A stretch of 32,000 nt of DNA, from contig JAQTTP010000006.1 in the NCBI GenBank assembly GCA_028710695.1, positions 22,635 to 54,634 on the forward strand, given 5' to 3'. Position 1 is the stretch's first letter. The number at the start of each line of letters is the position of its first letter. The notes beneath the pieces are model-generated. The model worked only from the letters and a program-made list of their open reading frames with translations. It was not told where the DNA came from and searched no databases. Source of the stretch: Candidatus Iainarchaeum sp. GTDB taxonomy: Archaea > Iainarchaeota > Iainarchaeia > Iainarchaeales > 0-14-0-20-30-16. Of this stretch, positions 3,615 through 24,828 are shown piece after piece. The position numbers and the translations under genes were made by a program.

Positions 3615-3709
3615 ACAAAAAGCCTAAACGCGTACTATTTATAAATAGTTTTTTTCTAGTATATTATTAGTAAATTCTTTTTTTAGTGGTTAATCTTTTG
3701 GGTGATATC

Positions 3710-6010
3710 ATGGTTGTGGCAAAAGTAAAGGAAGCAGTAAGAAGCGATGTTGGAAGAGGAATAGCAAGGCTTGGGAAAAAACTGATGAAATCCCTAAAGC
3801 TAGAAGTGGGTGACGCAATAATAATAAAAGGCAAGAAAGAGGCCTGTGCATTAGTGTGGTCTGAGCTGCCTGATGACGAAAGCATAATCAGAATGGATGG
3901 AATCTTAAGGCACAATGCAGGAACAAGCCTGGACGAGGAAGTAGAATTAAAAAAAGTGGAATTAAAAGAAGCAAAGAAGATGCTTTTAGCCCCAACTCAA
4001 GAGATAAGTTTTTCAGCTGATTTTGTAGATTATGTTAAAGAAAAAATACTTAATATGCCTTTACTTATGGGAAATTCTTTGCTTATTAATGTGCTTGGAA
4101 CCCAATTGCAGTTAATAGTTACAAAAATGGAACCCTCACCAGGAAGAATTACATGGGATACTGATTTGAAGATTGCTGACAAGCCAATGAAAGTTGCAGA
4201 AAAAACAAAAGGAATAAGATATGAAAATATTGGTGGTTTGGAGAAAGAAATTGAAGCAATAAGAGAGATGGTAGAGATACCAATGAAGAATCCAGAAGTG
4301 TTTAGAAAATTGGGAATAAGCCCGCCAAAAGGAGTTTTATTACACGGTCCTCCTGGAACTGGGAAAACATTATTGGCTAAGGCAGTTGCAAATGAGACTG
4401 ATGCACATTTCATAACTCTAAATGGTCCAGAAATAATGAGCAAATATTATGGGCAAAGTGAAGAGAACTTGAGAAATGTTTTCAAAGAGGCAAAAGAAAA
4501 TGCGCCATCAATAATTTTTATTGATGAAATTGATGCAATCGCATCAAGCAGAGAAGAAACCCACGGAGAGGTAGAGAAGAGGGTTGTTTCTCAGCTTTTA
4601 ACTATGATGGACGGCTTGGAAGCAAGAGGGAATGTAATTGTAATTGCTGCAACCAACAGGCCAGATTCTTTAGATGCTGCTTTGAGAAGACCCGGAAGGT
4701 TTGATAGAGAATTACAAATTGGAATGCCAACAAGAATTGCAAGAAAAGAAATCCTGCAAATCCATACAAGGAACATGCCAATTACAATAAAAAAAGAAGA
4801 AATAACTTCTGACTTAATTTCAAAATTAAAAGAACTTACTAGGGATGGAAAAAAGGAACAAGATTTATCAAAAATGATAAAAGTTTTAGAATCGGATGAT
4901 AATGTAAACAAAAAAATTACTGACTTGTACAAACAAGTAGATCCAACTTTACTAAACGACTTGTTAAAGCAGAGTTTAGTTGCTTATCTTGCTGATGAAT
5001 CTATTGGTTTTTCAGGGGCAGATTTAGAGGTGCTTGCAAAAGAAGCAGCAATGCGTGCTTTGAGAAGAGTAATGCCACAGATAAAACAAGCAGAAGGAAA
5101 TTTGTCTAAGAAAATATTAGATGACATAATCATAACTATAGAAGACTTCTTTGAAGCATTAAAGTTTGTGGAACCGTCAGCTATGAGAGATATTTCTGTT
5201 GAGATACCTAAAGTTAGTTGGGACGATGTTGGTGGTCTTGAAGATGTAAAGGCAAAGATAAGAGAAAGCATAGAATGGCCAATGAAATATCCAGAACATT
5301 TCAAAACTGCAGGGATTTCGCCTCCACAAGGAATTATGCTTTATGGTCCACCTGGAACTGGAAAAACATTGATAGCAAAAGCAATTGCAAATGAGGCTAA
5401 ATTGAACTTCATTGTTGTAAAAGGCCCAGAACTTTTGAGTAAGTGGGTTGGAGAAAGTGAAAAAGGAATAAGAAAAATATTTAGTAGAGCAAGACATGTT
5501 GCTCCGGCAATGATTTTCTTTGATGAAATTGATGCTTTGGTTCCAACAAGAGGAAGAAGTAATAATGATGTTTCAGATAAGTTGACTGCACAATTGCTTA
5601 CAGAAATGGACGGTGTAACAAGAATACATGATATAATCATTATGGGATCTACAAATAGACTTGATTTACTAGATCCTGCTCTTTTAAGGCCCGGAAGATT
5701 TGATGTTGCCTTGTATGTTGGTCTTCCAGAAAAAGATGCAAGAAAGCAGATCCTAAAAGTTCATTCAAAAGACATGACTTTATCAAGTACAGTAAAGTTC
5801 GAAGAAGTTGCTGAGAAAACAGAAAACTATTCTGGCGCGGACTTGAGAGCGGTTTGTGTAGAGGCCGGATTGGAAGCAATAAGACGAGCAATAAAAGAGA
5901 AGAGGGATCTAAAAGAAGTTACAATGAAAGACTTCCACGAAGCAATTAAGAAAATAAAGCCAAGCGTGGATAGCGCGATAGTAGAAGGCAAAGATGTGAA
6001 TGTAAGATAG
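3710..6010 (+). CDS. cdc48: Cdc48/VAT-type double-ring AAA+ ATPase
   Basis: N-domain [21 protein letters not shown]...GDAIIIKG. Two Walker A motifs ([13 protein letters not shown] and [13 protein letters not shown]), two Walker B motifs (IIFIDEIDA and MIFFDEIDA), and SRH regions [20 protein letters not shown] and [20 protein letters not shown] prefer ATG 3710, preceded by GGTGAT at 3701, over the TTG at 3686. Confidence 0.93.
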
Positions 6011-6100: not shown

Positions 6101-6679
6101 ATGCATAAAGTAGGACAAAAAATCAACAAATGGCGTAATCTCCATTCCTTGAAATCTCAGAAAGGTCAGGAAAGTATTGTATTTGAAGTTCTTATTGCAG
6201 TTATACTAATGACTTTTGTTTTTGTAATTGGGGGGTATGCAATGAAATCCCTAAACGAAACAAAATGCTCAAAAGAAATAGACTTGTCTATGAGCCAACT
6301 TGCGAGCGCAATAGAAAAAGCAGGAGCAACAAGTATTGGTACATATTACTACAAATTTTCGCCATCTTCTTGTTTTAGAAATAAAGAAACAAGTTATGAA
6401 CTAAAATCTGAAAGTGCAACTTTGTGTTCATCTTATTGTCCTGGAACTAATTATTGTTACCTGCTGAAATATCAAAATCAACAAGATCCAGTTAGTCCTC
6501 TTAGGTATAAATGCGTAAATATTTCGAAATACGTTGGATTAAATAATACTGGAATTTGTTCTGCACAAGGAGATTATGATGTAATGCAAGTTAACCCAAC
6601 TATTTTCCACCAGGGGGATTATTTGTTTGAATCAAAATCTTTGACAGTTCCATCAATTTGTATTTATTATAAACAATAA
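6101..6679 (+). CDS. Secreted/anchored Cys-rich protein with a class III (type IV pilin-like) signal-peptide-like N-terminus
   Basis: Basic leader MHKVGQKINKWRNLHSLKSQKG, then QESIVFEVLIAVILMTFVFVIGGYAM ([KR]G followed by Q-x-S, an acidic residue and a >20-aa hydrophobic helix). There are 8 Cys in the C-terminal domain. It is the first gene of a same-strand cluster. Confidence 0.7.
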   Translation: MHKVGQKINKWRNLHSLKSQKGQESIVFEVLIAVILMTFVFVIGGYAMKSLNETKCSKEIDLSMSQLASAIEKAGATSIGTYYYKFSPSSCFRNKETSYELKSESATLCSSYCPGTNYCYLLKYQNQQDPVSPLRYKCVNISKYVGLNNTGICSAQGDYDVMQVNPTIFHQGDYLFESKSLTVPSICIYYKQ

Positions 6680-6701
6680 GTGATGCCATCGCCGTGATTT
6701 T

Positions 6702-7328
6702 ATGATTGAGTTTATAATTTCCAAAATAGGTATATTGCTTTTTGCAGTGGCCGTGGCATCAGTGTTGATATTTTTTTCTTTAGGAATGAAAGATATTTTT
6801 GTTGCAGAGCAAGGCAGGGAAATTGCATCAACAATTATTAAGCAAGCAAAAGGTTTGTCGGAAACAGAGGCTTTGTGTACATCATTGAGGCTTAACTTGC
6901 CAAGATATATTGATATTTATGGGTCTACAGAAACATTTTCTTTGTCTGCATTGAATTATTTTTTTAAGATTTCAAAAGTTGATATTGGAAACGGCCAGAA
7001 TTCTGTTGTATTTGGAATTTACAAAAAAAATGGAAAAAAAGTTGGAAAACTTTTTGCAGTTGATAGTTTTAATACCAACTCTCAAATAGATTTTATTGGA
7101 ACTCCTGTGCCTGATGTTGACAAACCAGGTGAGACTTTAACTTGGGATCCGACCAACTCTTTGAGTAATGTAGTTTATGTTGTAAAAACAGTAATAAATG
7201 GTGAAGAAATAATCCATCTTGTTAAATGTGGGTATGACAAAAAAAGTGCAAACCCATATTCAAGTTGTTATTCTGCATTTGAAAATCTAAATATACCGGG
7301 GGTTTATTGTGTTCCAAAAGAAGATTAA
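6702..7328 (+). CDS. Membrane-anchored/secreted protein of the pilin-like cluster
   Basis: The N-terminus is itself a hydrophobic helix with an early Glu (MIEFIISKIGILLFAVAVASVLIFF). An in-frame TGA at 6681-6683 excludes a longer leader. There are 4 Cys in the ectodomain. The 3' end overlaps the next gene by 20 nt. Confidence 0.65.
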   Translation: MIEFIISKIGILLFAVAVASVLIFFSLGMKDIFVAEQGREIASTIIKQAKGLSETEALCTSLRLNLPRYIDIYGSTETFSLSALNYFFKISKVDIGNGQNSVVFGIYKKNGKKVGKLFAVDSFNTNSQIDFIGTPVPDVDKPGETLTWDPTNSLSNVVYVVKTVINGEEIIHLVKCGYDKKSANPYSSCYSAFENLNIPGVYCVPKED

Positions 7329-7923
7329 AAAGCAAAGTAGTAAGCCCCAAAGAAAAAAGGGCTTTATAGGAGCAATTGGTGATGATCTGCCAAGCTTGGT
7401 GCCAATATTTTTCTCTTTATTGATTTTTTTTGGAACTCTTTCATTTGTGTTTGTTACTCTTGGTGACAGAAATGCATATCTAGAAAAATATTTTGAGTCA
7501 ATATCTGTTTCAAAAGAAATATTGGGAAGTAGTTTTTATTCTGGATATACAGATTTTGATATGAGAGTTAAAGGGGTAAACACAACAGAGAAATATGCTG
7601 TTGGATTAATTTATAATCCAGAACTTTTAGGAAACAATATTTTTGATAAAGATTATTTTATTCAAAGTTTTGATAATCTTGGTATAGAAGAATTCCAGAT
7701 TCCAATAGATGATGTTGATTTTTTTTGTACTGTTGATGACAGTATTTGTAATTCTAATTCTGACAAAAATTATTTTGTATTTTCTAACGACCCAGATTTT
7801 GAAAATTCAATAGAACTGGACATTATTTTTAAAAACAACCAACCTCTAACCTATCTTTACCCAGTTACTTTGTCAACAAGTAAAGGGGTATTTGGGGTAT
7901 ATCTATATTTAATTGTGTGGTAA
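7309..7923 (+). CDS. Pilin-like cluster protein 3
   Basis: GTG start inside the previous gene. Basic leader MFQKKIKKQSSKPQRKKG, then FIGAIGDDLPSLVPIFFSLLIFFGTLSFVFVTL. There are 2 Cys (FFCTVDDSIC). Confidence 0.6.
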   Translation: MFQKKIKKQSSKPQRKKGFIGAIGDDLPSLVPIFFSLLIFFGTLSFVFVTLGDRNAYLEKYFESISVSKEILGSSFYSGYTDFDMRVKGVNTTEKYAVGLIYNPELLGNNIFDKDYFIQSFDNLGIEEFQIPIDDVDFFCTVDDSICNSNSDKNYFVFSNDPDFENSIELDIIFKNNQPLTYLYPVTLSTSKGVFGVYLYLIVW

Positions 7924-7925
7924 AT

Positions 7926-8690
7926 ATGAAGTCGAGAAAAATGAATCAGAGGGGCCAAGCAGCAGTTACTGATGCCTTATTTTTCTTGACTATAGTGGCA
8001 GTTGTTAGTGTACTGATGTTTACAAATGCAATGGGCTATGGAAAGAATCTAATTGATAGTAGTGTTGAGTATTACGAAAATACTTACATAATTTCTGCAT
8101 TAAAAACTTTGTATGCAGTAAGTAGTCCATTAGAATTAGATAAATATAGTGTTTTTGAAAGCAACTATAATGATACTTTGTTTACAATGTTAAAAAAAGA
8201 TTATTATCTTGACACAGTTTTGTCAAATGAAATGAAAATAAAAGTAATGGAATCTTTAAAAGAAATAATGAAACCAATAAACAAAAACAAAAATTATCTT
8301 TTCTATATTTATAACCCCAAAAATCAAGCAGGAGTTGGAGAGATTGTTCTTGCTGGATTTGTAATAACTCAAGAAGAGAGTGATGAAAAAATAACTTATA
8401 TTTGTGGAAAATCTTTAGACCCACAAATAAATAATATCTCTTTAGATGATATTTCATATTACCTTTCAAGGCACTTATTAGGGCAGAGATTTGCAGAAGG
8501 AAGAATGAGTTTATTAGAAAAACAAGGTGCGGATTCAACTCTTGTTATAGTAAATACAGGGCTTCTTGTTTGGACTGCAACCCCTGACATAGATAAATAT
8601 GGTGACTTTGTAGATCCCGGAACAGAATTTTTGAAAACAAACTGTTGTGTTTATACTCCTGGAACTTTATCTTGTCAGGTGAATCCGTAA
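7926..8690 (+). CDS. Pilin-like cluster protein 4 (class III signal-peptide-like)
   Basis: ATG 7926 lies 2 nt after the upstream TAA. MKSRKMNQRG, then QAAVTDALFFLTIVAVVSVLMF. There are 4 Cys, including the C-terminal NCCVYTPGTLSCQ. The GTG at 7917 in the ORF track is an alternative start. Confidence 0.65.
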   Translation: MKSRKMNQRGQAAVTDALFFLTIVAVVSVLMFTNAMGYGKNLIDSSVEYYENTYIISALKTLYAVSSPLELDKYSVFESNYNDTLFTMLKKDYYLDTVLSNEMKIKVMESLKEIMKPINKNKNYLFYIYNPKNQAGVGEIVLAGFVITQEESDEKITYICGKSLDPQINNISLDDISYYLSRHLLGQRFAEGRMSLLEKQGADSTLVIVNTGLLVWTATPDIDKYGDFVDPGTEFLKTNCCVYTPGTLSCQVNP

Positions 8691-8756: not shown

Positions 8757-9836
8757 TTATTTTTTGTCTGATTCTTTTTTCTCTTCCTTCTTTTTTGGTG
8801 GCTCCAAATCCAAATTTAGATTTAGATCTAAATCGCCTAAATCATTATCAGAAATCTTTTTGTCTAAATTAAAATTAGGTAAATCCATGTTTAGATCAAA
8901 TGGGTTTGTTTCTTCTTTCTTTTCTTCCTTTTTAGTGTCCTTTTCTGCTGGCTTGTCTTCTCCAGTGCCTTGTATTTTCTTGATTTCTTCATCTCTTGTA
9001 AGCTGAGTAAAAATATTATCTACAATTTGGTTTATTTCTCCTCTTTGGTTTGGCTCTCTGTTGTGTCTATCTCTGAACCGTTCTACTTCGACTTCTGTTA
9101 TTTTTTCGATTTCTTCCTTTGGCTTATTCAAATCAGTTTTCTCTTTTACTTGGCTGTAAATTACATCTATAATATTATCACGTAATTCTCTTGGAGTTTC
9201 TAGTTCTTCATCAGTATTTGGTTTGCCTTTTAATTCTTTAAGCCTTTCTCTGTAATGCCTTGAGCTTGGATCTGTTTCAGTGGCTTGGCTTTGTTCTTTG
9301 TCTTGGGGTTCACCAGGCCTATAAAATCTTCGTAATCTTCTTGGTATTTCAGAAACATCTTTATCTTTGTAGTTTTGTGGATTTTCGATAACTTTATCTG
9401 GTTCTACAGTCTTTTTTTCTTCCTGTTCGGCAAGTTTTATATTTTCTTCTTGTAATTTGCTTAATTCCTCTCCCAAATTTTCTTCAGGAGGCGCAAGCTG
9501 TATCGAGTTTTTTAATTGGCTCATAAGTTTGTCAACTTCACTAAAACTAGAATCTACTGTTGGTTCTGGGGCTTTAGTGGGTGCCAAATCCTTGCTAGTA
9601 AGAGTCAAATCCTTTCCTGATTCTTCTTTGTTTTGGTTTACTTTGTCCTTTGATTTAGATTCATTTTTTATTTCTTGTTTTTTTCCGCCTTTGCCATATA
9701 GCTCATCTATAACATCTCTTGCGATTTTTCTGGAATAACCTTCTGCCATAACCGCCTGAATGACTTCGTCTGTAGAATAGATGTTTTTGTAAGTTTGTAG
9801 AAGCTTAACTAAATTCTCAACTTCCTTTGAAGCCAT
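8757..9836 (-). CDS. Acidic, E/K-rich, largely disordered protein with a UBA-like N-terminal helical module and a C-terminal D-L-N repeat tail
   Basis: N-terminus: MASKEVENLVKLLQTYKNIYSTDEVIQAVMAEGYSRKIARDVIDELYG (three-helix pattern with an xEGY loop, as in UBA-type domains). About 280 aa of charged low-complexity sequence follows. The tail is FDLNMDLPNFNLDKK...LGDLDLNLNLDLEPPKKKEEKKESDKK. A TATA-like CTATATATAAATAA sits at 9852-9865 just upstream. Confidence 0.7.
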   Translation of the reverse strand: MASKEVENLVKLLQTYKNIYSTDEVIQAVMAEGYSRKIARDVIDELYGKGGKKQEIKNESKSKDKVNQNKEESGKDLTLTSKDLAPTKAPEPTVDSSFSEVDKLMSQLKNSIQLAPPEENLGEELSKLQEENIKLAEQEEKKTVEPDKVIENPQNYKDKDVSEIPRRLRRFYRPGEPQDKEQSQATETDPSSRHYRERLKELKGKPNTDEELETPRELRDNIIDVIYSQVKEKTDLNKPKEEIEKITEVEVERFRDRHNREPNQRGEINQIVDNIFTQLTRDEEIKKIQGTGEDKPAEKDTKKEEKKEETNPFDLNMDLPNFNLDKKISDNDLGDLDLNLNLDLEPPKKKEEKKESDKK

Positions 9837-9851
9837 AACAACACCTGCGAA

Positions 9852-9886
9852 CTATATATAAATAATAGTTAACTATTTAAAGAATA
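9852..9886. promoter_or_regulatory. Divergent promoter region (two TATA-like boxes)
   Basis: The 64-73 nt divergent gap holds CTATATATAAATAA (9852-9865, serving the minus gene starting at 9836) and ACTATTTAAAGAATA (9872-9886, serving the plus gene at 9901/9910). Confidence 0.4.
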
Positions 9887-9909
9887 TTTGTGTTTTTATA
9901 TTGATATAT

Positions 9910-10404
9910 ATGGAAATTACTTTTATAGGCATTCTGTACTCAATTTTGTACTGGGCTTGTTTTTCCGCCGTATTATTTTTTTTAATACTGCTTTTTGGGC
10001 ATTTTTATAAGGCTTTTGACGAAAAGTTGAAAATAAAAGATATTTTCAAGTATTTTTTGTTTACCTTGATCATATCCTACATAGTTTTGATATTGGCTTA
10101 TTTCCTTCCTGCGGCATTTGGGGTAAAACTTGAGTTTATTGCATTTTATACTACTTGGTACATGTACCTGTATGTTGTAATTGTAATTTTGCTGAAGCTT
10201 TTGCTTTATGCATTGGTACTATCAGTAATTCTTCAACCAGTAATTTTACTTGGGATTTTCCTTTATAGATACTTTGTTGAAAAAAATTCTAACGAGTTAT
10301 TGTCAAAATTTTATGTTTCAGTGATAATATCATTTGTGATTAGTTTGATATTGTATATCTTCCCTTGGATTCTGGGCGGAATGATTGCAATGGTGTATTT
10401 TTAG
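9910..10404 (+). CDS. Small polytopic membrane protein (about 5 TM), unknown function
   Basis: Almost entirely hydrophobic helices (ILYSILYWACFSAVLFFLILLF, FLFTLIISYIVLILAYFL, YMYLYVVIVILLKLLLYALVLSVIL, VISFVISLILYIFPWILGGMIAMVYF). Its TAG stop (10402-10404) overlaps the GGTGAT RBS of the next gene. TTG 9901 is an alternative start. Confidence 0.65.
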   Translation: MEITFIGILYSILYWACFSAVLFFLILLFGHFYKAFDEKLKIKDIFKYFLFTLIISYIVLILAYFLPAAFGVKLEFIAFYTTWYMYLYVVIVILLKLLLYALVLSVILQPVILLGIFLYRYFVEKNSNELLSKFYVSVIISFVISLILYIFPWILGGMIAMVYF

Positions 10405-10412
10405 GTGATTTG

Positions 10413-13400
10413 ATGGACTACAAACAAATATTCATGTACTTTGTTATTTTGAATATCTTTTTTTCTGCAATTGCTTTCTCTTATGTTCCGCCATCAGATT
10501 ATATGGGGCAGAACTCTTGTAAAACTGAAAGGCTAAGCCCTGAGGAAATAAATATTCTATGGGATGAATATTTGAGAACTGGCTTTACCCCAAATCAAAT
10601 AATTTCGGGGACTCCTGAAGAATTAAAAAATTCTGAAAAAACAGTTGAAAAAAAAGATTTTAATAAAGATGCGACTTTTACATCTATAGTTGATGATAAA
10701 GCAATAACTGCAGATGTGAGGACAGATCAAAAAATCCCTTATAACTCCTATATATTTAACAAAGTTATTGATGGAGACTATGCTTATGGTGTATTCCTAA
10801 ATGATTCTTTGAGAATTGGGCGATGTAAAGATGGTACAATTGGTTGTGCAGTTACTTCTGATAATAATGGGCTATATCTTAGAAATTCAGATGGCGCAAT
10901 TAAAACTTTTACTGAAGGTGTAAAATCTTTTTTTACAGGGGATGAAATAAAACAAAAAGACGCATATGGTGCCGGAGTAGTTAATCAAGAAGAAATAAAA
11001 GATAAAGTGGATTTAAGTCAAGCAGATGCTCAACAAGATATTAATGTTGTGAAATTTACTCACGAGCTTCAAGAAAAGCCAATGAGCAGTTTTTTAGTTG
11101 ATGATTTTTCATCAGAATTTATGATGCTGTGTAATAATCAAGATTCGGACAGCAGATGTAGAGTTTTGTTGTATTCTTTTTTTGATAAAAGATATAATGC
11201 CTATTATTCAGGCAGTCTAATATCTATTGCTGGTGGCCCAATTGCTTGGGGTGCAGTAAGCAAAGTATTTGGTGGTTTTGCATCATTCAAATATGGTGCG
11301 ATGGTAACAAAAGCAGTAAAAAAAGTTACAGATCCAGCAAAGCAATTATTGAAAGATACCTGGTATAAATTAATTGCAAAAGATTTCGGATATTTTTCAA
11401 AAAATGTAGGGGACACAGTGCTTAAAGCAACACAAAAAGGAGGCATTGGTGGTAGCCTGAAAGTTTTAGGGGATAATGCTTATGAAATTGTTCCTGCTAA
11501 ACTTGTTGCAGCAATTCAAAAAGATATGGTTCCAGGTTTGACTACTGCCCAAGCAAAGGAAGCCATTGGGGATGTAGTAGTTGCAAGAGCATCAGCAGCA
11601 GATTATGGACGAGGATTTTTAGAATCTGTCTCTGGAGAGTCTGATGTTTTTATTAAAAGAGCAGCTGCTATTGAGGCGGCAGATAAAGCACCAGTATTGC
11701 TTGGTGCACAAATGAATGATACTTTTTTGAATGAAAATTTTGCAGGATGGGTTGTAGATACTGCGGGTGGATCTGTTGCAGCAATGAAACCAATAACAAA
11801 ATTTGATATTGCCCCAAAATTTTTAAAGGGAGAAATAGATCCAAGCAAAATTTATAAACTTGCGGCAGGTGGAACAGCAGCAGAAGGTGTTGCACTTTCA
11901 GATTTAAAGAACTTTTTGAAAAGTAATCCTTCAGAAGAATACCTTGTTGAAATTGCTGGGACTTCAGTTCCCCTAAATGCCTCAACTGTAGATGCAGTAA
12001 AAGATGCGGCAGCAAAAGAGGGTATTGGAAGCCTTAGTATACTCACCGCAAGCAGGACCCCCATCGATTTTGGTAAATTTGGCGGCTATGAAGGGTTTAA
12101 ACAGAAATTTGCAAAAGACTACTATGATTTTGTAAAATACAAATACACTACTGCTGCAAATAATTATGATACAATTATGAACACTTTGCAAGGCGCAAAA
12201 GCAATGCCTACAAGAAATGCAAATGCAATGAACTTCTTTATGAAATTGTGGGCTGGGAAAGGAAGTGCAATTGGTGGCCTTGTAAGGCTTGAAGCTATTC
12301 CAACAATGTATTGGATGGCAAAAACAGGAGAGTTTGGAGATACTTTTAAAGCATATATGATTAAAGAGCAAGATCTGACAACAATAAAAACATACACTGG
12401 CGCAGATAGCTTGTATAACAGTGCATATATGGATATTTTTTCTAGAGAAGGAAGCAATAATGGAGATATGTTTTCTAAAGTTATTGACTATATAGTGTTT
12501 ATTGACAACATTGGATTATTGTCTAATGAAATGGAACAAAGCATAAAGTCTTTCTTTAGTCACCAGTTTAGAGACGAGCCCGAAGATTTAGTATTTTATA
12601 ATGAAGCACTAAAATGTGGTAAAGGTGCTTGTACTATATCTCTAAATAAACAAGCAGCAAAAGAAAAAATAGAAAACACAGATGTTGTTTCAGGAAAAGA
12701 TGTTGATATAATAAATGATAAAATACATGTGAACACTCAATCATTGCAAGGAACAAAAAATTATGTTGTTGAATTCCCAGACCCAGTTCCATCTGATGAC
12801 CCAGACCCAGGATATACTTTGAGTGCATTCGTGCATAGAATGAATATTGTTGGAAAAGATGGTGAAATAAATTTGGCATCAGCACTAGCACAAAAAGAAG
12901 ATTGTGTAAGTAAAGCAAAAGGCCTAACTATTGTTGGTATTCCATTTGGTAGCATGTTTGCATCTGATGTTGATCCATCTAAATTTGCAATACCTTTGGG
13001 AATAGTTGATAACTCAATTGGTTTAGCTCTTACTGGAATTCCTGGATTGGCATTGAGTGTAGTATCGTCTATACTAATAATGGAACAAGTTCAAGAACAA
13101 GTTGGAAATTGTGTAGATATTGTTGATGGATACTATGTTACTGACTCACTGATTCCTTACCAAGACATGAATGATTCTTTAATGTCTAAGATTGGCGGTG
13201 TGGCATCTAAAGGAGAAAAAGAAACAGAGAAATCTCTTCTGGAAGGAACACCTCTTGATAAAATCGCAACTACAATAAAAGACCAATTTAATAAAATAAT
13301 AAGCAATAAAACACATGAAGCAATACAGATAAATGTTGAAACAAAAGGAAAAACTAATGGATCTGTTTATGCGGAAGATATCTTCCTGATTTGGGAAGGT

Positions 13401-14747
13401 GGAAATGCAAGTCAGATAAATCTAAAGTATGATGATAAATCGTACACAACTTTAAAAGATAAAGACGGGAAAACAGCAATAATAGATAATGAGAAAGGGA
13501 TTTTTGAAATAAATGGAAAGCAAATTAATAATCCGGATCTTGTAAGATTAATGAAAAGAAATAATAGGGGCCCGTTCTATAGTATGCCTGTTGCAGTAAC
13601 TGTATTTTCAGCAAACAGTGTTGGAAATATGTTTGAAGCACACACAAATGGTGATTTTTTAGTAAAGGATCCAAGCATACTTGATTGTATTAGAGCTGGA
13701 GTGTTTGAGCAAACTGGAATGACTATGATGGGCAACTCTTTGTATGAACATATGGGCCCAGTTACAGAAATCTTGGTTGAATCTGGAACAATAATTAGAC
13801 CAAGTTTGTATGGTTCTGAAAACCAATTCTCAATGGAAGGAACAACTATTGGAAGAATTCCTATGCCTAATTCAACACTTACTGTTAAAGGTGATAGAAC
13901 TGTAGTAATTAAGAACGCACAAAAGTCTTACGAATTAGATGGTGTTGTTGGTATTGCCTTTGAAAAAGGATCAATTGTTTACAAAGCGCAAACAAATGAA
14001 TTTATTATGTGGATAGAAAACATGGCACAAATTGATGGAAAATATATTTCTAATTTGATGTCAAATCACAACCCCCAAATAAATGAAGAAACTGGTTGTG
14101 AAGAAGATGCATTTGATTTGAAATTAGCTCCAATTCCCGGAGATGTAACTGCGGAAGAAGAAGTTGGAAAGATGAATATTGCTTTAGAAAAAGCAGGCCC
14201 ATTCCAATACTTCCAGACTCCAAAATATAATATAATTTTCTATTCAAAAATGGAAAGTGGGGTTTGTAAAAAATATATGAAAGTTGTAGACAGAGAAACT
14301 GGAAGAGTAATAAGTGATGCAGAAGTAACAAGCGTTACAAAAACTCCAGATGGTTATAAAGTTACAACTGCGGATGGAAAAACACATGATATCGGATTTG
14401 AAGTTGCAAATGGGAAGCCGATATTGTCTTATAATGGAGACAAGCAGCCTTTGCTAATTGCACAAGGAAAAGATGGTGCATTCTATTACGATCCAAGTAC
14501 AGGAAAATGGTATGTTGATAATGCACAAGTATTGCCAATAGATGATGACTTTAAGTTACATGGGTCTGCAACACAAGGAAATAATACATATCCGTCTGAT
14601 AACCCAATAAGTGGGGCTTTAAGTCCATCAGATAGTTCAAAATCAAGTTGGGATATTCCATTAACTGGAAGTCTATTAGCTTCAGGATTAGTAATGTTAG
14701 TAAGTAGTATGTTTGTATATTTGTACTTTAAGAGGGAGGATGAGTAA
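10413..14747 (+). CDS. Orphan 1,444-aa secreted/membrane protein with an N-terminal signal peptide and a C-terminal IPLTG-TM-KREDE sorting-signal-like anchor
   Basis: ATG 10413 is preceded by AGGTGAT (10403-10409), and the ORF-track start at 10365 overlaps the upstream gene. The signal peptide is MDYKQIFMYFVILNIFFSAIAFS. Internal Gly/Ala-rich hydrophobic segments include LISIAGGPIAWGAVSKVFGGFA and IGLALTGIPGLALSVVSSILIM. The Ser-rich stalk SGALSPSDSSKSS is followed by WDIPLTG-SLLASGLVMLVSSMFVYLYF-KREDE. I recognise no enzymatic motif. Confidence 0.8.
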   Translation: MDYKQIFMYFVILNIFFSAIAFSYVPPSDYMGQNSCKTERLSPEEINILWDEYLRTGFTPNQIISGTPEELKNSEKTVEKKDFNKDATFTSIVDDKAITADVRTDQKIPYNSYIFNKVIDGDYAYGVFLNDSLRIGRCKDGTIGCAVTSDNNGLYLRNSDGAIKTFTEGVKSFFTGDEIKQKDAYGAGVVNQEEIKDKVDLSQADAQQDINVVKFTHELQEKPMSSFLVDDFSSEFMMLCNNQDSDSRCRVLLYSFFDKRYNAYYSGSLISIAGGPIAWGAVSKVFGGFASFKYGAMVTKAVKKVTDPAKQLLKDTWYKLIAKDFGYFSKNVGDTVLKATQKGGIGGSLKVLGDNAYEIVPAKLVAAIQKDMVPGLTTAQAKEAIGDVVVARASAADYGRGFLESVSGESDVFIKRAAAIEAADKAPVLLGAQMNDTFLNENFAGWVVDTAGGSVAAMKPITKFDIAPKFLKGEIDPSKIYKLAAGGTAAEGVALSDLKNFLKSNPSEEYLVEIAGTSVPLNASTVDAVKDAAAKEGIGSLSILTASRTPIDFGKFGGYEGFKQKFAKDYYDFVKYKYTTAANNYDTIMNTLQGAKAMPTRNANAMNFFMKLWAGKGSAIGGLVRLEAIPTMYWMAKTGEFGDTFKAYMIKEQDLTTIKTYTGADSLYNSAYMDIFSREGSNNGDMFSKVIDYIVFIDNIGLLSNEMEQSIKSFFSHQFRDEPEDLVFYNEALKCGKGACTISLNKQAAKEKIENTDVVSGKDVDIINDKIHVNTQSLQGTKNYVVEFPDPVPSDDPDPGYTLSAFVHRMNIVGKDGEINLASALAQKEDCVSKAKGLTIVGIPFGSMFASDVDPSKFAIPLGIVDNSIGLALTGIPGLALSVVSSILIMEQVQEQVGNCVDIVDGYYVTDSLIPYQDMNDSLMSKIGGVASKGEKETEKSLLEGTPLDKIATTIKDQFNKIISNKTHEAIQINVETKGKTNGSVYAEDIFLIWEGGNASQINLKYDDKSYTTLKDKDGKTAIIDNEKGIFEINGKQINNPDLVRLMKRNNRGPFYSMPVAVTVFSANSVGNMFEAHTNGDFLVKDPSILDCIRAGVFEQTGMTMMGNSLYEHMGPVTEILVESGTIIRPSLYGSENQFSMEGTTIGRIPMPNSTLTVKGDRTVVIKNAQKSYELDGVVGIAFEKGSIVYKAQTNEFIMWIENMAQIDGKYISNLMSNHNPQINEETGCEEDAFDLKLAPIPGDVTAEEEVGKMNIALEKAGPFQYFQTPKYNIIFYSKMESGVCKKYMKVVDRETGRVISDAEVTSVTKTPDGYKVTTADGKTHDIGFEVANGKPILSYNGDKQPLLIAQGKDGAFYYDPSTGKWYVDNAQVLPIDDDFKLHGSATQGNNTYPSDNPISGALSPSDSSKSSWDIPLTGSLLASGLVMLVSSMFVYLYFKREDE
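14655..14744 (+). other. C-terminal tripartite sorting-signal-like segment (IPLTG motif, 20-aa hydrophobic helix, charged tail)
   Basis: Codons att cca tta act gga (14655-14669) give IPLTG. They are followed by SLLASGLVMLVSSMFVYLYF and KREDE-stop. Confidence 0.55.
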
Positions 14748-14748
14748 A

Positions 14749-14874
14749 ATGGCAGTAGTTAGAAAACCTTTACCAAAAGCACCTGGTTTTGCAATAAAGA
14801 AAACAATAACTGGTCCAAGAGGAACTGGTAGAAAAGGCAATGTTATTCAATTAGCAAAAGCAAAAAGAAGATAA
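14749..14874 (+). CDS. 41-aa highly basic peptide, translationally coupled to the giant gene
   Basis: Manual translation: MAVVRKPLPKAPGFAIKKTITGPRGTGRKGNVIQLAKAKRR*. The ATG lies 1 nt after the upstream TAA, with GGAGGATGA at 14735-14743 acting as a Shine-Dalgarno inside the upstream gene's end. It is below the ORF-track cutoff. Confidence 0.45.
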   Translation: MAVVRKPLPKAPGFAIKKTITGPRGTGRKGNVIQLAKAKRR

Positions 14875-14910
14875 GTCATAAAAAAGGACTTATTCTTCTT
14901 CTTTTTTATT
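14873..14910 (+). terminator. Short hairpin plus T-tract between convergent genes
   Basis: AAGTC-(9 nt)-GACTT (14873-14891), then ttcttcttcttttttatt. Confidence 0.4.
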
Positions 14911-14927: not shown

Positions 14928-15617
14928 CTAAATTATATTGTGTCCTGCATACTCTTTTTCTTTCATATCCTTTAATTGAGTATTTACTATTCCACTTAGT
15001 TTCTTTGATTCCGCAAGCAATGGCTTGTTGTCTATGTTTAAATTGTACATTTTATTTAGAAGCCCAATTGCTTTTGCAGCTGCATCGTAATTTTTTGTTT
15101 GCAAAAACGGAACTAAAATTAGAAAGATTGGATAATCTTTTTCAAGAATAAAGAATTGTGCACCAATTCCTGCTGTGATTCCTTCTTTTATTTTTTGAAT
15201 ATTGTATTTTTCTAAATAAGTTAAATTCTTTTTGTTGTTTGCAACTCCTAAAATTGTTTCATTATTGTCTATTATTCCACCAATTGAAAGTATTCTGTCC
15301 ATTTTTGATTTCTTTGCCCAATGTAGGACAATATTACAATAGCTTTTCAAATCCTCTTTTTGAATTATTTGGTCAGAAATTATACAAATAAGTTTGTGCT
15401 TGTGGGAAACATAAGCCCTTATTGGGTGCTGTGGAATCCCGTTCTCAATTTTTACTATTGGTGTTGTATTGTCGTGTTCGAAATGGCCTAGATAGTCCAT
15501 TTTTAGGTTTTCAATTAAGTATTTTGTAGTAATAGAACTAATTAAATCTGCAGAAGGAAACCCCTCTATTAGAGTGTAACCCTTGTAATTTTTGTTAGAC
15601 TTAAAGAATAGACCCAT
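14928..15617 (-). CDS. PAC2-family proteasome assembly chaperone-like protein
   Basis: The N-terminal pattern YTLIEGFPSADLISSITTKYLIENLKMDYLGHFE....PIVKIENG....PIRAY matches the remembered PAC2/COG1938 pattern (xLIEGxPGxGxVGxxAxxYLIxxL...). There is no C-terminal HbYX motif (it ends ...AGHNII). Confidence 0.6.
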   Translation of the reverse strand: MGLFFKSNKNYKGYTLIEGFPSADLISSITTKYLIENLKMDYLGHFEHDNTTPIVKIENGIPQHPIRAYVSHKHKLICIISDQIIQKEDLKSYCNIVLHWAKKSKMDRILSIGGIIDNNETILGVANNKKNLTYLEKYNIQKIKEGITAGIGAQFFILEKDYPIFLILVPFLQTKNYDAAAKAIGLLNKMYNLNIDNKPLLAESKKLSGIVNTQLKDMKEKEYAGHNII

Positions 15618-17823: not shown

Positions 17824-18162
17824 ATGAAGAGAAAATTGAATCCCTTGCCATTGTCTTTGAGAGAAAAGAAAAGATATCTTTTATTTTCTATGAATAAAGT
17901 AGAAAATTTTGAAAACATAATTAATAGTTATGTGCGGTCTTTTTTTGGAACTTATTTTATGGCACAAATGGAATTCAGGATTTTGAAGAGTAAAGAGAAA
18001 AAAAAGAGAATTTATTTTGTTGTAAAAGCATCTAGAGATGAATTTGAAAAAATAATTGCTGCTTTGGAATTATTTAAAAAATCAAATGAAATTATGTTGG
18101 ACATAAAGTTAGAAAAAGTTAGTGGAACAATAAAGACAATAAATGAAATCTTGGAGGAGTAA
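17824..18162 (+). CDS. rnp2: RNase P protein component 2 (Pop5 family)
   Basis: PLPLSLREKKRYLLF near the N-terminus and KVSGTIKTI near the C-terminus match archaeal Pop5 signatures (LPPTLRxKxRYIxF ... VSGTIK). Confidence 0.85.
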   Translation: MKRKLNPLPLSLREKKRYLLFSMNKVENFENIINSYVRSFFGTYFMAQMEFRILKSKEKKKRIYFVVKASRDEFEKIIAALELFKKSNEIMLDIKLEKVSGTIKTINEILEE

Positions 18163-18163
18163 A

Positions 18164-18958
18164 ATGATCCAAAGAAAGAAAGTTGGGCTTGCATTAGGTG
18201 GTGGAGGCTCAAAAGGATTTGCACATATTGGTGTCTTGCAAGTTTTTGAAGAAGAAGGCATTCCAGTAGATTATATTTGTGGAACTTCTATTGGATCTTT
18301 AATTGGTGGCCATTATTCTTTGTATAAAGATATAGATCATCTAAAATCTGATGCCTTTTCGTTTTTGAAAGAAAATGATTTAGACTTATTTAGTTTGTTA
18401 AAACCTGGATATGAGAAAACACTAAAAAATTTACAGTTCTTTTTAGAATCTGTATATAGGGATCATAGGTTTTCTGACACAAAAACCCCTTTTTCTTGTA
18501 CTGCAGTGAATATAGAAAATGGTGCTTTATTAGATATCGATGACGGAAGACTTATTGATGCAATTTTTGCAAGTATGAGTATTCCAGGTCTGTTTCCTGC
18601 AAGATTTTTTTGGGGTTCTTGGCTAGTTGATGGCGGGGTACTAAATAATTTGCCAGTAGATATTGTTGCAAAAAAAGGTTATGATGTTGTTATAGGCTGC
18701 GATCTAGGGGACATTGAAGCTCTAAAACAAATAGAGGCAAAACCAACAAGAATAGATGCTTTGAAAAGGTCATTTATTATCATGTCTGATGATTTGACAG
18801 CAAGAATAAAAAAATCAGTTCCAAATGCAATAATAATAAATCCAAAAATAGTTGTTTCAACACTGAGATTTGATTATGCTTTGTCTAAAAAACAAATTGT
18901 TGAGGGCGAAAAATCAGCAAGAGCAAAAATAGATGAAATTAAGAAGAGGCTAAAGTGA
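18164..18958 (+). CDS. Patatin-like phospholipase
   Basis: Oxyanion/Gly-rich loop GLALGGGGSKGFAHIGV, nucleophile elbow GTSIGSLIGG (GxSxG), and catalytic Asp motif LVDGGVLNNLP. ATG 18164 is preceded by GGAGGAG (18153-18159) and lies 1 nt after the rnp2 stop. Confidence 0.88.
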   Translation: MIQRKKVGLALGGGGSKGFAHIGVLQVFEEEGIPVDYICGTSIGSLIGGHYSLYKDIDHLKSDAFSFLKENDLDLFSLLKPGYEKTLKNLQFFLESVYRDHRFSDTKTPFSCTAVNIENGALLDIDDGRLIDAIFASMSIPGLFPARFFWGSWLVDGGVLNNLPVDIVAKKGYDVVIGCDLGDIEALKQIEAKPTRIDALKRSFIIMSDDLTARIKKSVPNAIIINPKIVVSTLRFDYALSKKQIVEGEKSARAKIDEIKKRLK

Positions 18959-19632: not shown

Positions 19633-20160
19633 TTAAGCCAACCAGATTCCTATTTGGAATACTGCAACAATTAAAACTATCTTTAGAAGTTGATATTTAT
19701 TGAAAATTAGCATAAGAAAAGTGAATAATTTTAAAGGAATTACAAAGATTGTATTTATAAGAAATAAAGGAATTTGCATAAGGAAATGTTTCTGGGCAAT
19801 ACCTTTGTAGATTGAAACTATTTTTGCGTCTACATTTTGGATATCTTTTTTACTTGGGACAGATTGGAAAATAATTGTTACTGCAAGCCACAAAATTATT
19901 ACAAAAAAATAAAACTCTGGGCGAAATTTCACTGCGTACCAAATTCCAAGTGTGGCAATTATGTTACTAAAAAGAAAAGGGGCAATAGCAATGATTATTG
20001 TTTTCCAATCGTGTACATCATGGTGTTGTACATATGATTCTTTTAATCCAAATTTTACTTTTGTTACTTTTACACCTAATAACATACAGGCAAGAAAGTG
20101 TGTGAACTCATGAATTATTACTCCTGGATAAAATAATAATTCTAAGAACATTTTTACCAC
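19633..20160 (-). CDS. Membrane-embedded HExxH protein (M50B-like/DUF3267-like putative metalloprotease)
   Basis: PGVIIHEFTHFLACMLLGVKVTKVKFG at the N-terminus, followed by 4-5 hydrophobic helices. The GTG start (or ATG 20151) abuts the bud32 stop. Confidence 0.55.
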   Translation of the reverse strand: MVKMFLELLFYPGVIIHEFTHFLACMLLGVKVTKVKFGLKESYVQHHDVHDWKTIIIAIAPFLFSNIIATLGIWYAVKFRPEFYFFVIILWLAVTIIFQSVPSKKDIQNVDAKIVSIYKGIAQKHFLMQIPLFLINTIFVIPLKLFTFLMLIFNKYQLLKIVLIVAVFQIGIWLA

Positions 20161-22742: not shown

Positions 22743-22812
22743 ATTTTTTTATCTTATTTTTATTTATCTAATTATTCGTAATTAATATATACCTGGTTTG
22801 TCTCTTTCTATA

Positions 22813-24069
22813 ATGCATAATGGATATCTTTTGCCAAACCAATATGTTGACCAAGTAATTAATGGTAGAGATTATTGTGCTGAATTTTTGAAAGTCCCTG
22901 TTGAATTAAGGGGTGTTGTATTTCTATATCTCCCCCAAACAATCCAAAAACAAGTATTAAAGAAAATATCTGATGAAAAGCTAGTTGATTTGTTAAGATA
23001 TCCTGATCCTGATGATATTACTGATATAATTCAAGGGTTATCTTTTTTTAGACGTAAAAAAATACTTTCAGAATTAGAAGGTGGTATGGCAAAAAAAGTA
23101 GCGGACCTTTTAGCATATCCTTCTGACACAGCAATAAGATTAACAAATTTAGACTATGTATTAGTGGATTTGGGAATTAAATTTAAAGATGTTTTAAATG
23201 TTGTTGAAAAACACAAAAAGAAAACTGGAAAAGACCCGGTGGTTTTAGCTCAAAAAGATGGAATTTTTGTTGGAGAGATTCCAGTTTCAGCATTTATCCG
23301 CAGTAATCTTGATGACATCATAGATAAATATGTTGTAAAAGTGCCAACAATTTTTTATCATGAAAAACAATCAAAAATAATAAAATTATTTGAGCACAAC
23401 AAGCACAATAAGATAATTGTTTTAGATAAAGGCAAAGCAATTATCGGAATCATTTATTCTGACGATGTTTTTAGACTAATGAAAAAGCAAAGAGCAAGAG
23501 ATTTGTATGGCTTTGCAGGATTGAAGCAAGAAGAAGATATTTTTGATAAATTTTATATAAAAATAAAAAATAGAGCAACATGGCTGGTGCTTAATTTATT
23601 TACTGCTTTCCTTGCTTCTCTTGTTGTGGCATTATTTAAAGATGTGATATCTGCAGTTGTTGTTCTTGCTGCTTATATGCCTATTGTTGCGGGTATGGGC
23701 GGAAATGCGGGAACGCAGACTCTTGCTGTAACAGTTAGGGGGCTTGTTTTACATAATATAGAAAAAAGAGCTTTTTTCAGAATTTATTTTAACGAACTTT
23801 TGGCAGCATTTTTTAATGGACTGATAGTTGGTATTGTTGCAATTGTATTGGCTTATTTATTGGGGGCAAGCCTTGTCTTTAGCCTTATTGTGGCAGTATC
23901 GGTGTTATTGAATTTAATGGTTGCAGTTAGCGCAGGCTTCTTTGTACCTCTGTTTCTTAAACGCATTGGAAAAGATCCTGCAACAGGGTCAAGTGTTCTT
24001 ATTACTACTGCAACAGATGTCTGTGGATTCTTTATATTCTTGGGATTAGCAAGTATAATTTTCTTGTGA
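22813..24069 (+). CDS. mgtE: Magnesium transporter MgtE
   Basis: MPIVAGMGGNAGTQTLAVTVRGL, TM helices, a CBS-like middle region, and C-terminal DPATGSSVLITTATDVCGFFIFLG. ATG 22813 is preferred over TTG 22798 because TTAATATATA (about 22781-22792) lies roughly 25 nt upstream. The start is uncertain. Confidence 0.88.
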   Translation: MHNGYLLPNQYVDQVINGRDYCAEFLKVPVELRGVVFLYLPQTIQKQVLKKISDEKLVDLLRYPDPDDITDIIQGLSFFRRKKILSELEGGMAKKVADLLAYPSDTAIRLTNLDYVLVDLGIKFKDVLNVVEKHKKKTGKDPVVLAQKDGIFVGEIPVSAFIRSNLDDIIDKYVVKVPTIFYHEKQSKIIKLFEHNKHNKIIVLDKGKAIIGIIYSDDVFRLMKKQRARDLYGFAGLKQEEDIFDKFYIKIKNRATWLVLNLFTAFLASLVVALFKDVISAVVVLAAYMPIVAGMGGNAGTQTLAVTVRGLVLHNIEKRAFFRIYFNELLAAFFNGLIVGIVAIVLAYLLGASLVFSLIVAVSVLLNLMVAVSAGFFVPLFLKRIGKDPATGSSVLITTATDVCGFFIFLGLASIIFL

Positions 24070-24075
24070 TTTACT

Positions 24076-24828
24076 ATGTTTGGTAATTTTTTTCGTAAAA
24101 GACCAGAAATGAAGACTGCAAAAGATGTAAAAAGAATTACTTTTGCTGAAAGAGTTATTCCTGGACAAGAACACATTCCTAAGAAAGAAAGATCAACAGA
24201 ATTTATTGAATTTGGCGGGGGAGATTTTGGATCTATTGCCGTAGGAAGAGTTAAATTTAATGATGGTACAGAAAAACGAGTTGCCATAAAATTTTTTCAT
24301 AAAGACAGAGTAGTTTCTGATGCAATGGCTAAACAATATAGAGAAGTTATGGCTGACTTTAAATCTGCGGGAGTTAGAATTCCAAAAATGGATATGGTTA
24401 AACTTCCTACTGGCGAGTGGGTACAAGTTTCAGCTCTTTTTGGATCTTCAGGAAAAGGTAGTAAATTTAAATCAAATTTACAATGGTCTATATATCATGC
24501 AATTGAAGCTGGAGAAGCAGCAGTATTGAATTATTTTGAACAATGTGTTTTGATTGCAAATGCAGGCTATAAGCCTTATGTTGATGCGTTTTTTGTTAAC
24601 CCCAAAACGAAACAAGTTTATGTTGGAGATCTAGATCTTTTTGCAAGATTTGGAAAATCGTCGACAAATAATATTATTCGTGACTTATATTCACAACAAA
24701 GCCTTCTTCTGCGTGTAACTACAGTGAATAAACTTTTAGAAGTCTTTAGAAAAAGAGCGAATTTTGGGCTACGAAGACATGAAAAAAAGATATTTGGAAC
24801 ATTATTAAATGTTGTTGCAAAGAAATAA
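24076..24828 (+). CDS. Minimal atypical protein-kinase-like protein (250 aa), family not recognised
   Basis: FGGGDFGSIAVG (GxGxxG, residues 47-52), RVAIKFF (VAIK Lys72), YREVMADF (Glu90), YVDAFFVN (D170-x4-N175) and VGDLDLF (D185/D187). The spacings match the canonical ePK core. The gene starts 6 nt after the mgtE stop. Confidence 0.6.
   Translation: MFGNFFRKRPEMKTAKDVKRITFAERVIPGQEHIPKKERSTEFIEFGGGDFGSIAVGRVKFNDGTEKRVAIKFFHKDRVVSDAMAKQYREVMADFKSAGVRIPKMDMVKLPTGEWVQVSALFGSSGKGSKFKSNLQWSIYHAIEAGEAAVLNYFEQCVLIANAGYKPYVDAFFVNPKTKQVYVGDLDLFARFGKSSTNNIIRDLYSQQSLLLRVTTVNKLLEVFRKRANFGLRRHEKKIFGTLLNVVAKK

Follow-up and report, generated by a model that had tools for sequence, protein, structure and literature searches.

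Four kinds of described system come close to the protein considered here. With an LPXTG sorting signal, a secreted protein ends in a short motif, a hydrophobic helix and a charged tail; the pentapeptide contains a T-G scissile pair, and a hydrophilic spacer and a positive tail belong to the design (bioRxiv 10.1101/2023.06.07.544157). Sortases in archaea (sortase E) are linked to pseudomurein clusters, which are those of Methanobacteriales and Methanopyrales (PMC11915815). Exosortase/archaeosortase signals (PGF-CTERM, PEF-CTERM, VPXXXP-CTERM, PEP-CTERM) are carried by many unrelated proteins and, in contrast to LPXTG signals, follow a design described by Haft, in which the motif abuts the transmembrane (TM) helix without a spacer and a basic cluster follows (bioRxiv 10.1101/2023.06.07.544157). 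JDVT-CTERM occurs once per genome and has conserved residues within or close to the TM helix, an invariant Cys and a conserved neighbourhood with an adjacent gene for a CPBP-type protease (bioRxiv 10.1101/2023.06.07.544157). Finally, type I anchored surface proteins, such as the TM-anchored S-layer subunit of Sulfolobales, have a signal peptide, a large ectodomain, a low-complexity stalk, one C-terminal TM helix and, on the cytoplasmic side, a short tail whose basic residues lie close to the membrane (PMC6098224). Here, we compare these systems with the C-terminal tail of a giant protein (PHH82_03520) of Candidatus Iainarchaeum sp., a DPANN archaeon (Iainarchaeota), encoded in a stretch of 32,000 nt (contig JAQTTP010000006.1, positions 22,635 to 54,634; GC content ~32%) that we call the window. 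To our knowledge, protein anchoring is unstudied in the DPANN superphylum. A first-pass annotation had read the end of this protein (IPLTG, a hydrophobic helix and KREDE) as a sortase-style signal that might be paired with a nearby archaeosortase-family gene. We lean towards another explanation, namely that the tail anchors a Sec-exported giant surface protein of type I in the membrane by stop-transfer, and that WDIPLTG is a decayed form of a family-specific juxtamembrane motif.

The protein ends in ...SPSDSSKSSWDIPLTG-SLLASGLVMLVSSMFVYLYF-KREDE, followed by TAA; SSWDIPLTG directly precedes the helix, and the Ser-rich stretch SPSDSSKSS lies upstream of WDIPLTG. Nucleotides 14655-14744 translate exactly as first annotated, i.e. 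into IPLTG, the helix and KREDE behind a Ser-rich stalk. The pattern [IL]P.TG occurs once in the giant protein, where its own composition leads one to expect 0.037 matches anywhere and ~2e-4 beside the TM helix, and at least one match is found in 3.5% of shuffled versions of the protein. The pattern is not enriched elsewhere, with 2 matches in the 92,762 residues examined, the other one being far from any TM helix. The placement of IPLTG beside the helix is hence not random; as the alignments described below indicate, what accounts for it is inheritance of a conserved motif of the family, not an LPXTG function.

A protein database of 5.8 billion sequences contains the identical deposited protein ('MAG: hypothetical protein PHH82_03520 [Candidatus ainarchaeum sp.]', also found in Logan) and three further homologues only, with 82%, 54% and 28% identity. 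WDIPLT is identical in the first two, whose tails read WDIPLTG...KREEE and WDIPLTDD...SRKDE, the G of IPLTG being a D in the 54% orthologue; the 28% homologue (P0004) ends in FNLPSLPAEP, a TM helix and SRHLIEKKIRS. Scanning metagenomes with the family alignment added 16 loci, 9 of them with a complete C-terminus, and it is on these nine homologues that the tail figures for what we call the main clade rest. All nine tails carry G-F-[N/S]-[I/V/L]-P-S-[L/M/V]-P-E-[T/G/N], with the TM helix immediately after it and then a basic tail, which has 4-6 Lys/Arg residues in eight cases and 2 in the remaining one (L014). The consensus of this family motif is written G-F-N-[IVL]-P-S-[LM]-P-E-T, and in the tail alignment W-D-I-P-L-T-G falls onto F-N-I-P-S-L-P-E-T. 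IPLTG thus aligned appears to be a lineage-specific, decayed derivative of PSxPET without the Ser, the second Pro and the Glu; in the window lineage, the Lys/Arg cluster seems to have decayed to KREDE together with the motif. Since IPLTG would derive from the conserved family motif, its likeness to [LI]PxTG can be regarded as coincidental.

The details that distinguish an LPXTG signal point in the same direction. The fit of IPLTG to [LI]PxTG is literal, but the T-G pair is not kept in orthologues (IPLTG, IPLTD and [ILV]PS[LM]PE), nine relatives having IPS[LM]PET at the homologous site. G1419 runs straight into the hydrophobic helix without a hydrophilic spacer, and KREDE, with charges of +2/-3, is net acidic where canonical signals have a basic cluster; RKDE is likewise net acidic. 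Of the tripartite, signal-like layout first proposed, the motif, the helix and the charged tail are real and kept across the giant family, but the charge of the tail in the window does not fit. The window tail scores 14.4 bits with TIGR01167 (cutoff 15.9) and 12.7 bits with PF00746 (cutoff 20), and both matches are confined to the TM helix and tail (aligned TIGR01167 model positions 11-33). The genes called on the 23-kb contig and on its relatives include no sortase domain. We know of no pseudomurein-type wall polymer in DPANN archaea that could act as an acceptor.

The giant's open reading frame (ORF) is open over 10365-14747 (+), and both the NCBI and the Logan gene calls start at the ATG at 10413. 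Neither Pfam nor NCBIfam has a domain that the protein matches. A classical Sec signal peptide is present at the start of every family member (e.g. ...NPAFVLA/AEQ, ...TIAFA/ETG), and the family topology appears to be type I, with the ectodomain outside, a single C-terminal TM helix and the tail inside. An AlphaFold2 model of residues 895-1444, based on an alignment of 9 sequences (mean predicted local distance difference test score, pLDDT, 59), has three parts, i.e. a beta-rich domain predicted with confidence (pLDDT 70-93), a disordered stalk of ~48 residues (model residues 477-524, with pLDDT below 50 and without secondary structure) and a terminal helix predicted at model residues 527-546; the juxtamembrane motif lies at the junction of stalk and helix. 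A fold search with the C-terminal 550 aa returned weak beta-propeller-like matches alone (TM-score ~0.1) and yields no functional assignment. These giant surface proteins of ~1,450-1,600 aa appear to form an uncharacterized DPANN family with a conserved C-terminal anchor module.

In the explanation that we favour, the signal peptide would carry the 1,444-aa chain through the membrane, and the large beta-rich ectodomain and a disordered Ser/Gly/Asn stalk of ~45 residues would remain outside. The last 34 residues would then be the anchoring module, in which the single C-terminal helix acts as a stop-transfer anchor with a Lys-Arg pair right behind it on the cytoplasmic face. The helix would be retained in the mature protein, and the conserved motif may serve partner contact or a structure at the membrane interface, not cleavage; the match to [LI]PxTG would have arisen as the motif decayed and would not mark a sortase site. 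The giant would probably work at the cell surface together with pilin-like proteins, the 4-TM protein encoded next to it and T2SSE/T2SSF-type pilus assembly partners. The architecture resembles that of the type I anchored surface proteins (signal peptide, large ectodomain, stalk, one C-terminal TM helix, short cytoplasmic tail, basic residues next to the membrane). It differs from them in that its juxtamembrane motif is conserved to a degree unusual for a plain anchor, and in that the family is uncharacterized and lacks a Pfam domain. In the window lineage, the TM helix is about as conserved as the whole protein (0.60 vs 0.56 between P0001 and P0003), and this, together with the loss of the basic cluster, fits a retained anchor.

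An internal hydrophobic segment (aa 858-893) is relevant to this topology. Its hydropathy over 19 residues (Kyte–Doolittle, KD19) is 2.05 in the window protein, 2.08 in P0003 and 1.74 in P0004, and 1.05-1.36 in eight main-clade homologues; it is TM-like in the window lineage because of a lineage-specific insertion of 18 residues, and is probably not a conserved membrane span. A flip of the topology by the segment, with a cytoplasmic motif as its result, was rejected for the family as a whole, as the segment is TM-like in the window lineage only; invariant Cys residues on either side of it in the four closest family members also count against a flip. The segment contains AIPLG and LALTG, a faint echo of the C-terminal IPLTG, and its main-clade counterpart is a conserved, less hydrophobic GFGPGLIAS.

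How widely the tail is distributed bears on whether it could be a shared sorting signal. A hidden Markov model (HMM) of the tail, built from 12 family members, was run with filters off against non-redundant DNA from ~12 genomes (277 kb), all ORFs from 50 aa upwards being included. It matches all giants (E 1e-11 to 1e-19) and no other protein family, the next matches, from E = 0.05, being N-terminal TM helices of pilin-like proteins. Three proteins that are unrelated to the giant and have a C-terminal anchor also lack the motif, namely those at window 24831-26021(-) (and the L007 orthologue of this one), L003 21076-21465(-) and L012 18218-22012(-). With the window-type tail as profile, an exhaustive HMMER search across 1.84 billion representatives gave the giant protein's own cluster and a spurious tandem-repeat ORF (P0010) only. 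This search used the window-type profile and not the main-clade motif, and it could detect only near-identical tails, as all nine motif residues with a different TM helix give 23 bits (E ~5). A word-index search with a 50-aa tail alignment matched nothing, the parent protein included, and is uninformative. The tail is hence carried by one protein family in the DNA covered, and the pentapeptide is not kept in orthologues, and as far as these data reach, both results speak against the enzyme and sorting-signal pair first suggested; sequence data support the single-family restriction locally, and it is not established genome-wide. Neither the window tail nor five main-clade tails match any NCBIfam or Pfam sorting-domain model, even at E up to 10. 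The suggestion that the tail lies outside the described archaeosortase signal classes is borne out by this, no curated model (PGF-, PEF-, VPXXXP-, PEP-CTERM and others) matching it. One of the anchored proteins without the motif, at 24831-26021 (-) and in L007 at 8999-10177 (-), is a secreted protein of 396 aa with a Ser/Thr/Asn-rich stalk, a C-terminal TM helix (KD 3.3) and a long basic tail; it has IPISG ~25 residues before the helix and no motif abutting it, and looks like a plain anchor by comparison.

The alternative that survives best is that the tail is processed, i.e. that it is a dedicated exosortase/archaeosortase-type signal, or the site of another intramembrane protease, with one substrate; we consider this unlikely, yet the most credible of the competing readings. 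PS[LM]PE[T], or WDIPLT[G/D] in the window lineage, would be recognized at the outer face of the membrane, the TM helix and tail would be removed, and the giant would be re-anchored, e.g. to a lipid; the enzyme in the window genome would be the 186-aa archaeosortase homologue. A number of observations favour such processing and weigh against a retained anchor. In 35 of the 36 main-clade pairs, conservation is higher in the 12-residue motif than over the full protein (mean 0.68 vs 0.48), while the main-clade TM helix (0.35) and tail (0.22) change faster, with hydrophobicity and charge alone being kept; a conserved motif followed by a drifting helix and tail is the pattern of cleaved sorting signals. 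The main-clade motif abuts the helix without a spacer, after a low-complexity linker rich in Ser, Gly, Thr and Asn and before the Lys/Arg cluster, in agreement with the exosortase/archaeosortase design and not with that of LPXTG signals (bioRxiv 10.1101/2023.06.07.544157). Its P-E-x core recalls PEP-, PEF- and PGF-CTERM (PMC6098224; bioRxiv 10.1101/2023.06.07.544157), and the N-terminal signal peptide and Ser/Thr-rich linker of archaeosortase substrates have counterparts in the giant's signal peptide and its disordered Ser/Gly/Asn-rich stalk. The architecture is complete in the main clade (most tails having 4-6 Lys/Arg); the window version has the motif and the helix, but lacks the S..PE core and the basic cluster and ends in the net acidic KREDE. 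The window genome moreover encodes an archaeosortase-family enzyme with an intact triad and without a known substrate, and a lone pair would not be unprecedented, as genomes with a single archaeosortase substrate (PMC6098224) and single-copy signals such as JDVT-CTERM are documented (PMC6098224; bioRxiv 10.1101/2023.06.07.544157). The searches for further carriers were also of low power and would miss proteins that share the motif alone.

The enzyme itself is well supported. As first annotated, a minimal archaeosortase-family gene lies downstream, 4.2 kb from the giant gene. Its product scores 35.1 bits with TIGR04178 (cutoff 23) and is named 'exosortase/archaeosortase family protein' by NCBI; C100 (in DVCSG), R142 (in FNxxR) and H162 are invariant in six homologues. 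It stays far below the cutoffs of named subfamilies (pacearchaeosortase NF033505, 19.2 vs 80; ArtD TIGR04175, 17.4 vs 125). What is not supported is the pairing of this enzyme with the tail. In both the window and the 54% relative, the giant gene is followed by the genes for PAC2, L15e, RNase P p30 and Pop5, the patatin and the archaeosortase, a conserved synteny across housekeeping genes and not an operon. Searching the 277 kb with an HMM of the enzyme gave homologues in the window, L003 and L007 only, and no archaeosortase accompanies the giant gene at a distance of up to 10 kb in L006 or in any of the nine complete main-clade loci. Scanning contigs with the archaeosortase alignment returned one locus, L007 (90% identity), on a 10-kb contig that ends short of the giant gene. 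The closest conserved partner of the archaeosortase-family gene is a patatin-like phospholipase gene, and their adjacency is kept in relatives with 62% and 90% identity (L003 15240-16575, with a 4-nt gap, and L007 3111-4486, overlapping, respectively). Substrates of the archaeosortase ArtA become lipid-anchored, and a coupling of phospholipase and archaeosortase genes is noteworthy for that reason, as a suggestive analogy. Convergent to the archaeosortase gene, at 19633-20160 (-), lies a gene for a polytopic membrane protein with an HEFTH motif, a putative zincin of the DUF3267 / Peptidase_M50B-like kind, which is kept in a relative (L003 16572-17090 (-)).

Against processing stand, besides the distance between the two genes, the lack of a second tail carrier in the 277 kb, the failure of every curated signal model and the restriction, in this DNA, to one family where known signals have many unrelated carriers. 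One-substrate systems usually have the enzyme gene adjacent, but the adjacent gene here encodes a 4-TM protein without an invariant residue of catalytic type; JDVT-CTERM, which the giant tail resembles in its single carrier per genome in the DNA covered, its conserved residues near the helix and its conserved neighbourhood, differs in having an invariant Cys and a neighbouring protease gene, and there is no Cys in the giant's motif. The sole lineage known to have the enzyme is, furthermore, the lineage in which both the motif and the basic cluster have decayed. If processing is nevertheless assumed, GFNxPSxPET with the TM helix and Lys/Arg cluster might be an undescribed 'PET-CTERM'-like signal on one giant pilus-cluster DPANN protein, cut by an archaeosortase of ~180 aa or by another intramembrane protease, a proposal that we find doubtful; WDIPLTG/KREDE would be a co-evolved or decaying variant of it.

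A further alternative, which we judge improbable and rank below the two just named, is a more specific version of the stop-transfer explanation, with a putative interaction added. The motif would dock the giant to a co-encoded membrane partner (the upstream 4-TM protein, or a small protein with GDDLPSLVP and a TM helix), tied to a pilus-like machinery and not to processing. The gene cluster is ordered as 4-5 genes for small proteins with an N-terminal TM helix, the gene for a ~4-TM protein, the giant gene and, on the opposite strand, PAC2. The 4-TM gene (~165-225 aa) lies directly before the giant gene, on the same strand, in the window, L003, L006 and seven main-clade loci, the two being separated by 8 nt in the window and overlapping by 1 nt in L006, and this strict adjacency favours docking. 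Its product matches no Pfam family and has only F, K, G, F and W as invariant residues. A role of the 4-TM protein as a dedicated protease was rejected, as no Cys, His, Ser, Asp or Glu is invariant; it is probably a membrane partner.

The small protein adds a second argument for docking, as its near-invariant N-terminus carries a similar [DN]-[IL]-P-S-L-x-P before a TM helix. D-L-P-S-L-V-P and its helix resemble the giant's N-I-P-S-L-P-E-T and helix, and gave the sole non-giant matches to the tail HMM; the similarity is short, however, with E = 0.05-0.4 in a small database, and if the basic N-terminus of the small protein faces inward, its motif would be on the cytoplasmic side, across the membrane from that of the giant. 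Homologues occur at L011 5942-6538, L013 5587-6270, L016 1917-2501(-), L017 5828-6475 and L022 3661-4317, i.e. in very distant loci. A link to pilus-like machinery is favoured by two T2SSF genes and one T2SSE gene at the cluster in the main-clade loci and L006. In the window, T2SSE/T2SSF assembly genes are absent, and a CDC48-type AAA ATPase gene (3686-6010) lies upstream instead. By inspection, and not by a model match, two of the small proteins in the window, at 6101-6679 and 7917-8690 (+), have prepilin-like class III signals (KGQES and QRGQAA; signal sequences ...KSQKGQESIVFEVLIAVIL and ...NQRGQAAVTDALFFLTIVAVV).

A true sortase signal, by which the protein would be cut between the T and G of IPLTG and linked to a wall polymer, can be dismissed as extremely improbable: the literal pentapeptide and the sub-threshold TIGR01167 and PF00746 matches speak for it, but it is effectively excluded because the G is not conserved, the spacer is missing, the tail is acidic and the model scores stay below cutoff, next to the lack of a sortase domain among the genes called and the link of archaeal sortases to pseudomurein clusters noted above.

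If the tail is indeed a stop-transfer anchor, a false lead is removed, in that there would be no LPXTG-type sorting in this DPANN archaeon, and an uncharacterized giant surface family is defined, in a cluster with pilin-like and type IV pilus assembly genes. The family is plausibly a component of surface building or partner attachment in ultra-small, probably host-dependent archaea. If, on the other hand, the tail is processed, the exosortase/archaeosortase systems would gain a new class of signal together with a minimal archaeosortase, as a readily testable single-substrate pair. The features discussed are collected in Table 1.

Table 1. Coordinates of the giant gene, its parts and the neighbouring genes in the window
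Feature	Position	Strand	Basis and remarks
Giant gene PHH82_03520	10413-14747	+	1,444 aa; NCBI label 'hypothetical protein'; ORF and translation
N-terminal Sec-type signal peptide MDYKQIFMYFVILNIFFSAIAFSY...	10413-10484	+	Hydrophobic N-terminus, KD 1.99; cleavage site inferred, no predictor used
Internal hydrophobic segment FAIPLGIVDNSIGLALTGIPGLALSVVSSILIMEQ, aa 858-893	12984-13091	+	TM-like in window lineage only
Low-complexity Ser/Gly/Asn/Pro stalk, aa 1371-1412	14523-14648	+	Sequence; AlphaFold2 model
Juxtamembrane motif W-D-I-P-L-T-G	14649-14669	+	Tail alignments; IPLTG itself at 14655-14669
C-terminal TM helix SLLASGLVMLVSSMFVYLYF	14670-14729	+	KD 1.97; predicted helix in model
Charged tail KREDE and TAA stop	14730-14747	+	KREDE 14730-14744, TAA 14745-14747; 2 basic then 3 acidic residues
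Four small N-terminal-TM proteins	6101-8690	+	Translations; homologous genes upstream of main-clade giants; no Pfam match
Small protein with KKGFIGAIGDDLPSLVP and TM helix	7309-7923	+	Near-invariant N-terminus KKGFIG[A/P]IGDDLPSLVP and TM helix; no Pfam match
Polytopic ~4-TM membrane protein	9910-10404	+	Directly upstream of giant gene in every locus
PAC2 proteasome-assembly-chaperone-family gene	14928-15617	-	Downstream neighbour of giant gene, conserved across family
Patatin-like phospholipase gene	18143-18958	+	Pfam PF01734, E = 6e-35; overlaps archaeosortase start by 4 nt
Exosortase/archaeosortase-family protein, minimal form, 186 aa	18955-19515	+	TIGR04178; C100, R142, H162

Some further features of the window deserve mention. 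Directly behind the giant gene, 3 nt past its stop codon, a very basic ORF of 41 codons (MAVVRKPLPKAPGFAIKKTITGPRGTGRKGNVIQLAKAKRR; 14750-14875 (+)) is called in Logan, and L003 has a gene for 126 aa in its place. Rfam and tRNA scans of the window gave no matches. Recoding of the TGA at 24067-24069 was considered and rejected: Logan lists a 671-aa fusion of ORFs 22798-24069 (MgtE, complete) and 24076-24828, which is a gene-caller artefact because the DNA is identical to that of the window and no giant ORF has an in-frame TGA. Lastly, a second giant ORF (27999-32000 (+)) runs open to the window end, and a search for contigs with the right-hand genes of the window gave the same 23-kb Logan contig only. 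The ORF encodes at least 1,334 aa, with a cytoplasmic N-terminus, a TM helix near residue 80 (WFTLLIIALIIAVIVLLVTVVFA) and a long ectodomain; where the window ends, the sequence is of low complexity and rich in Asn, Gln and Tyr.

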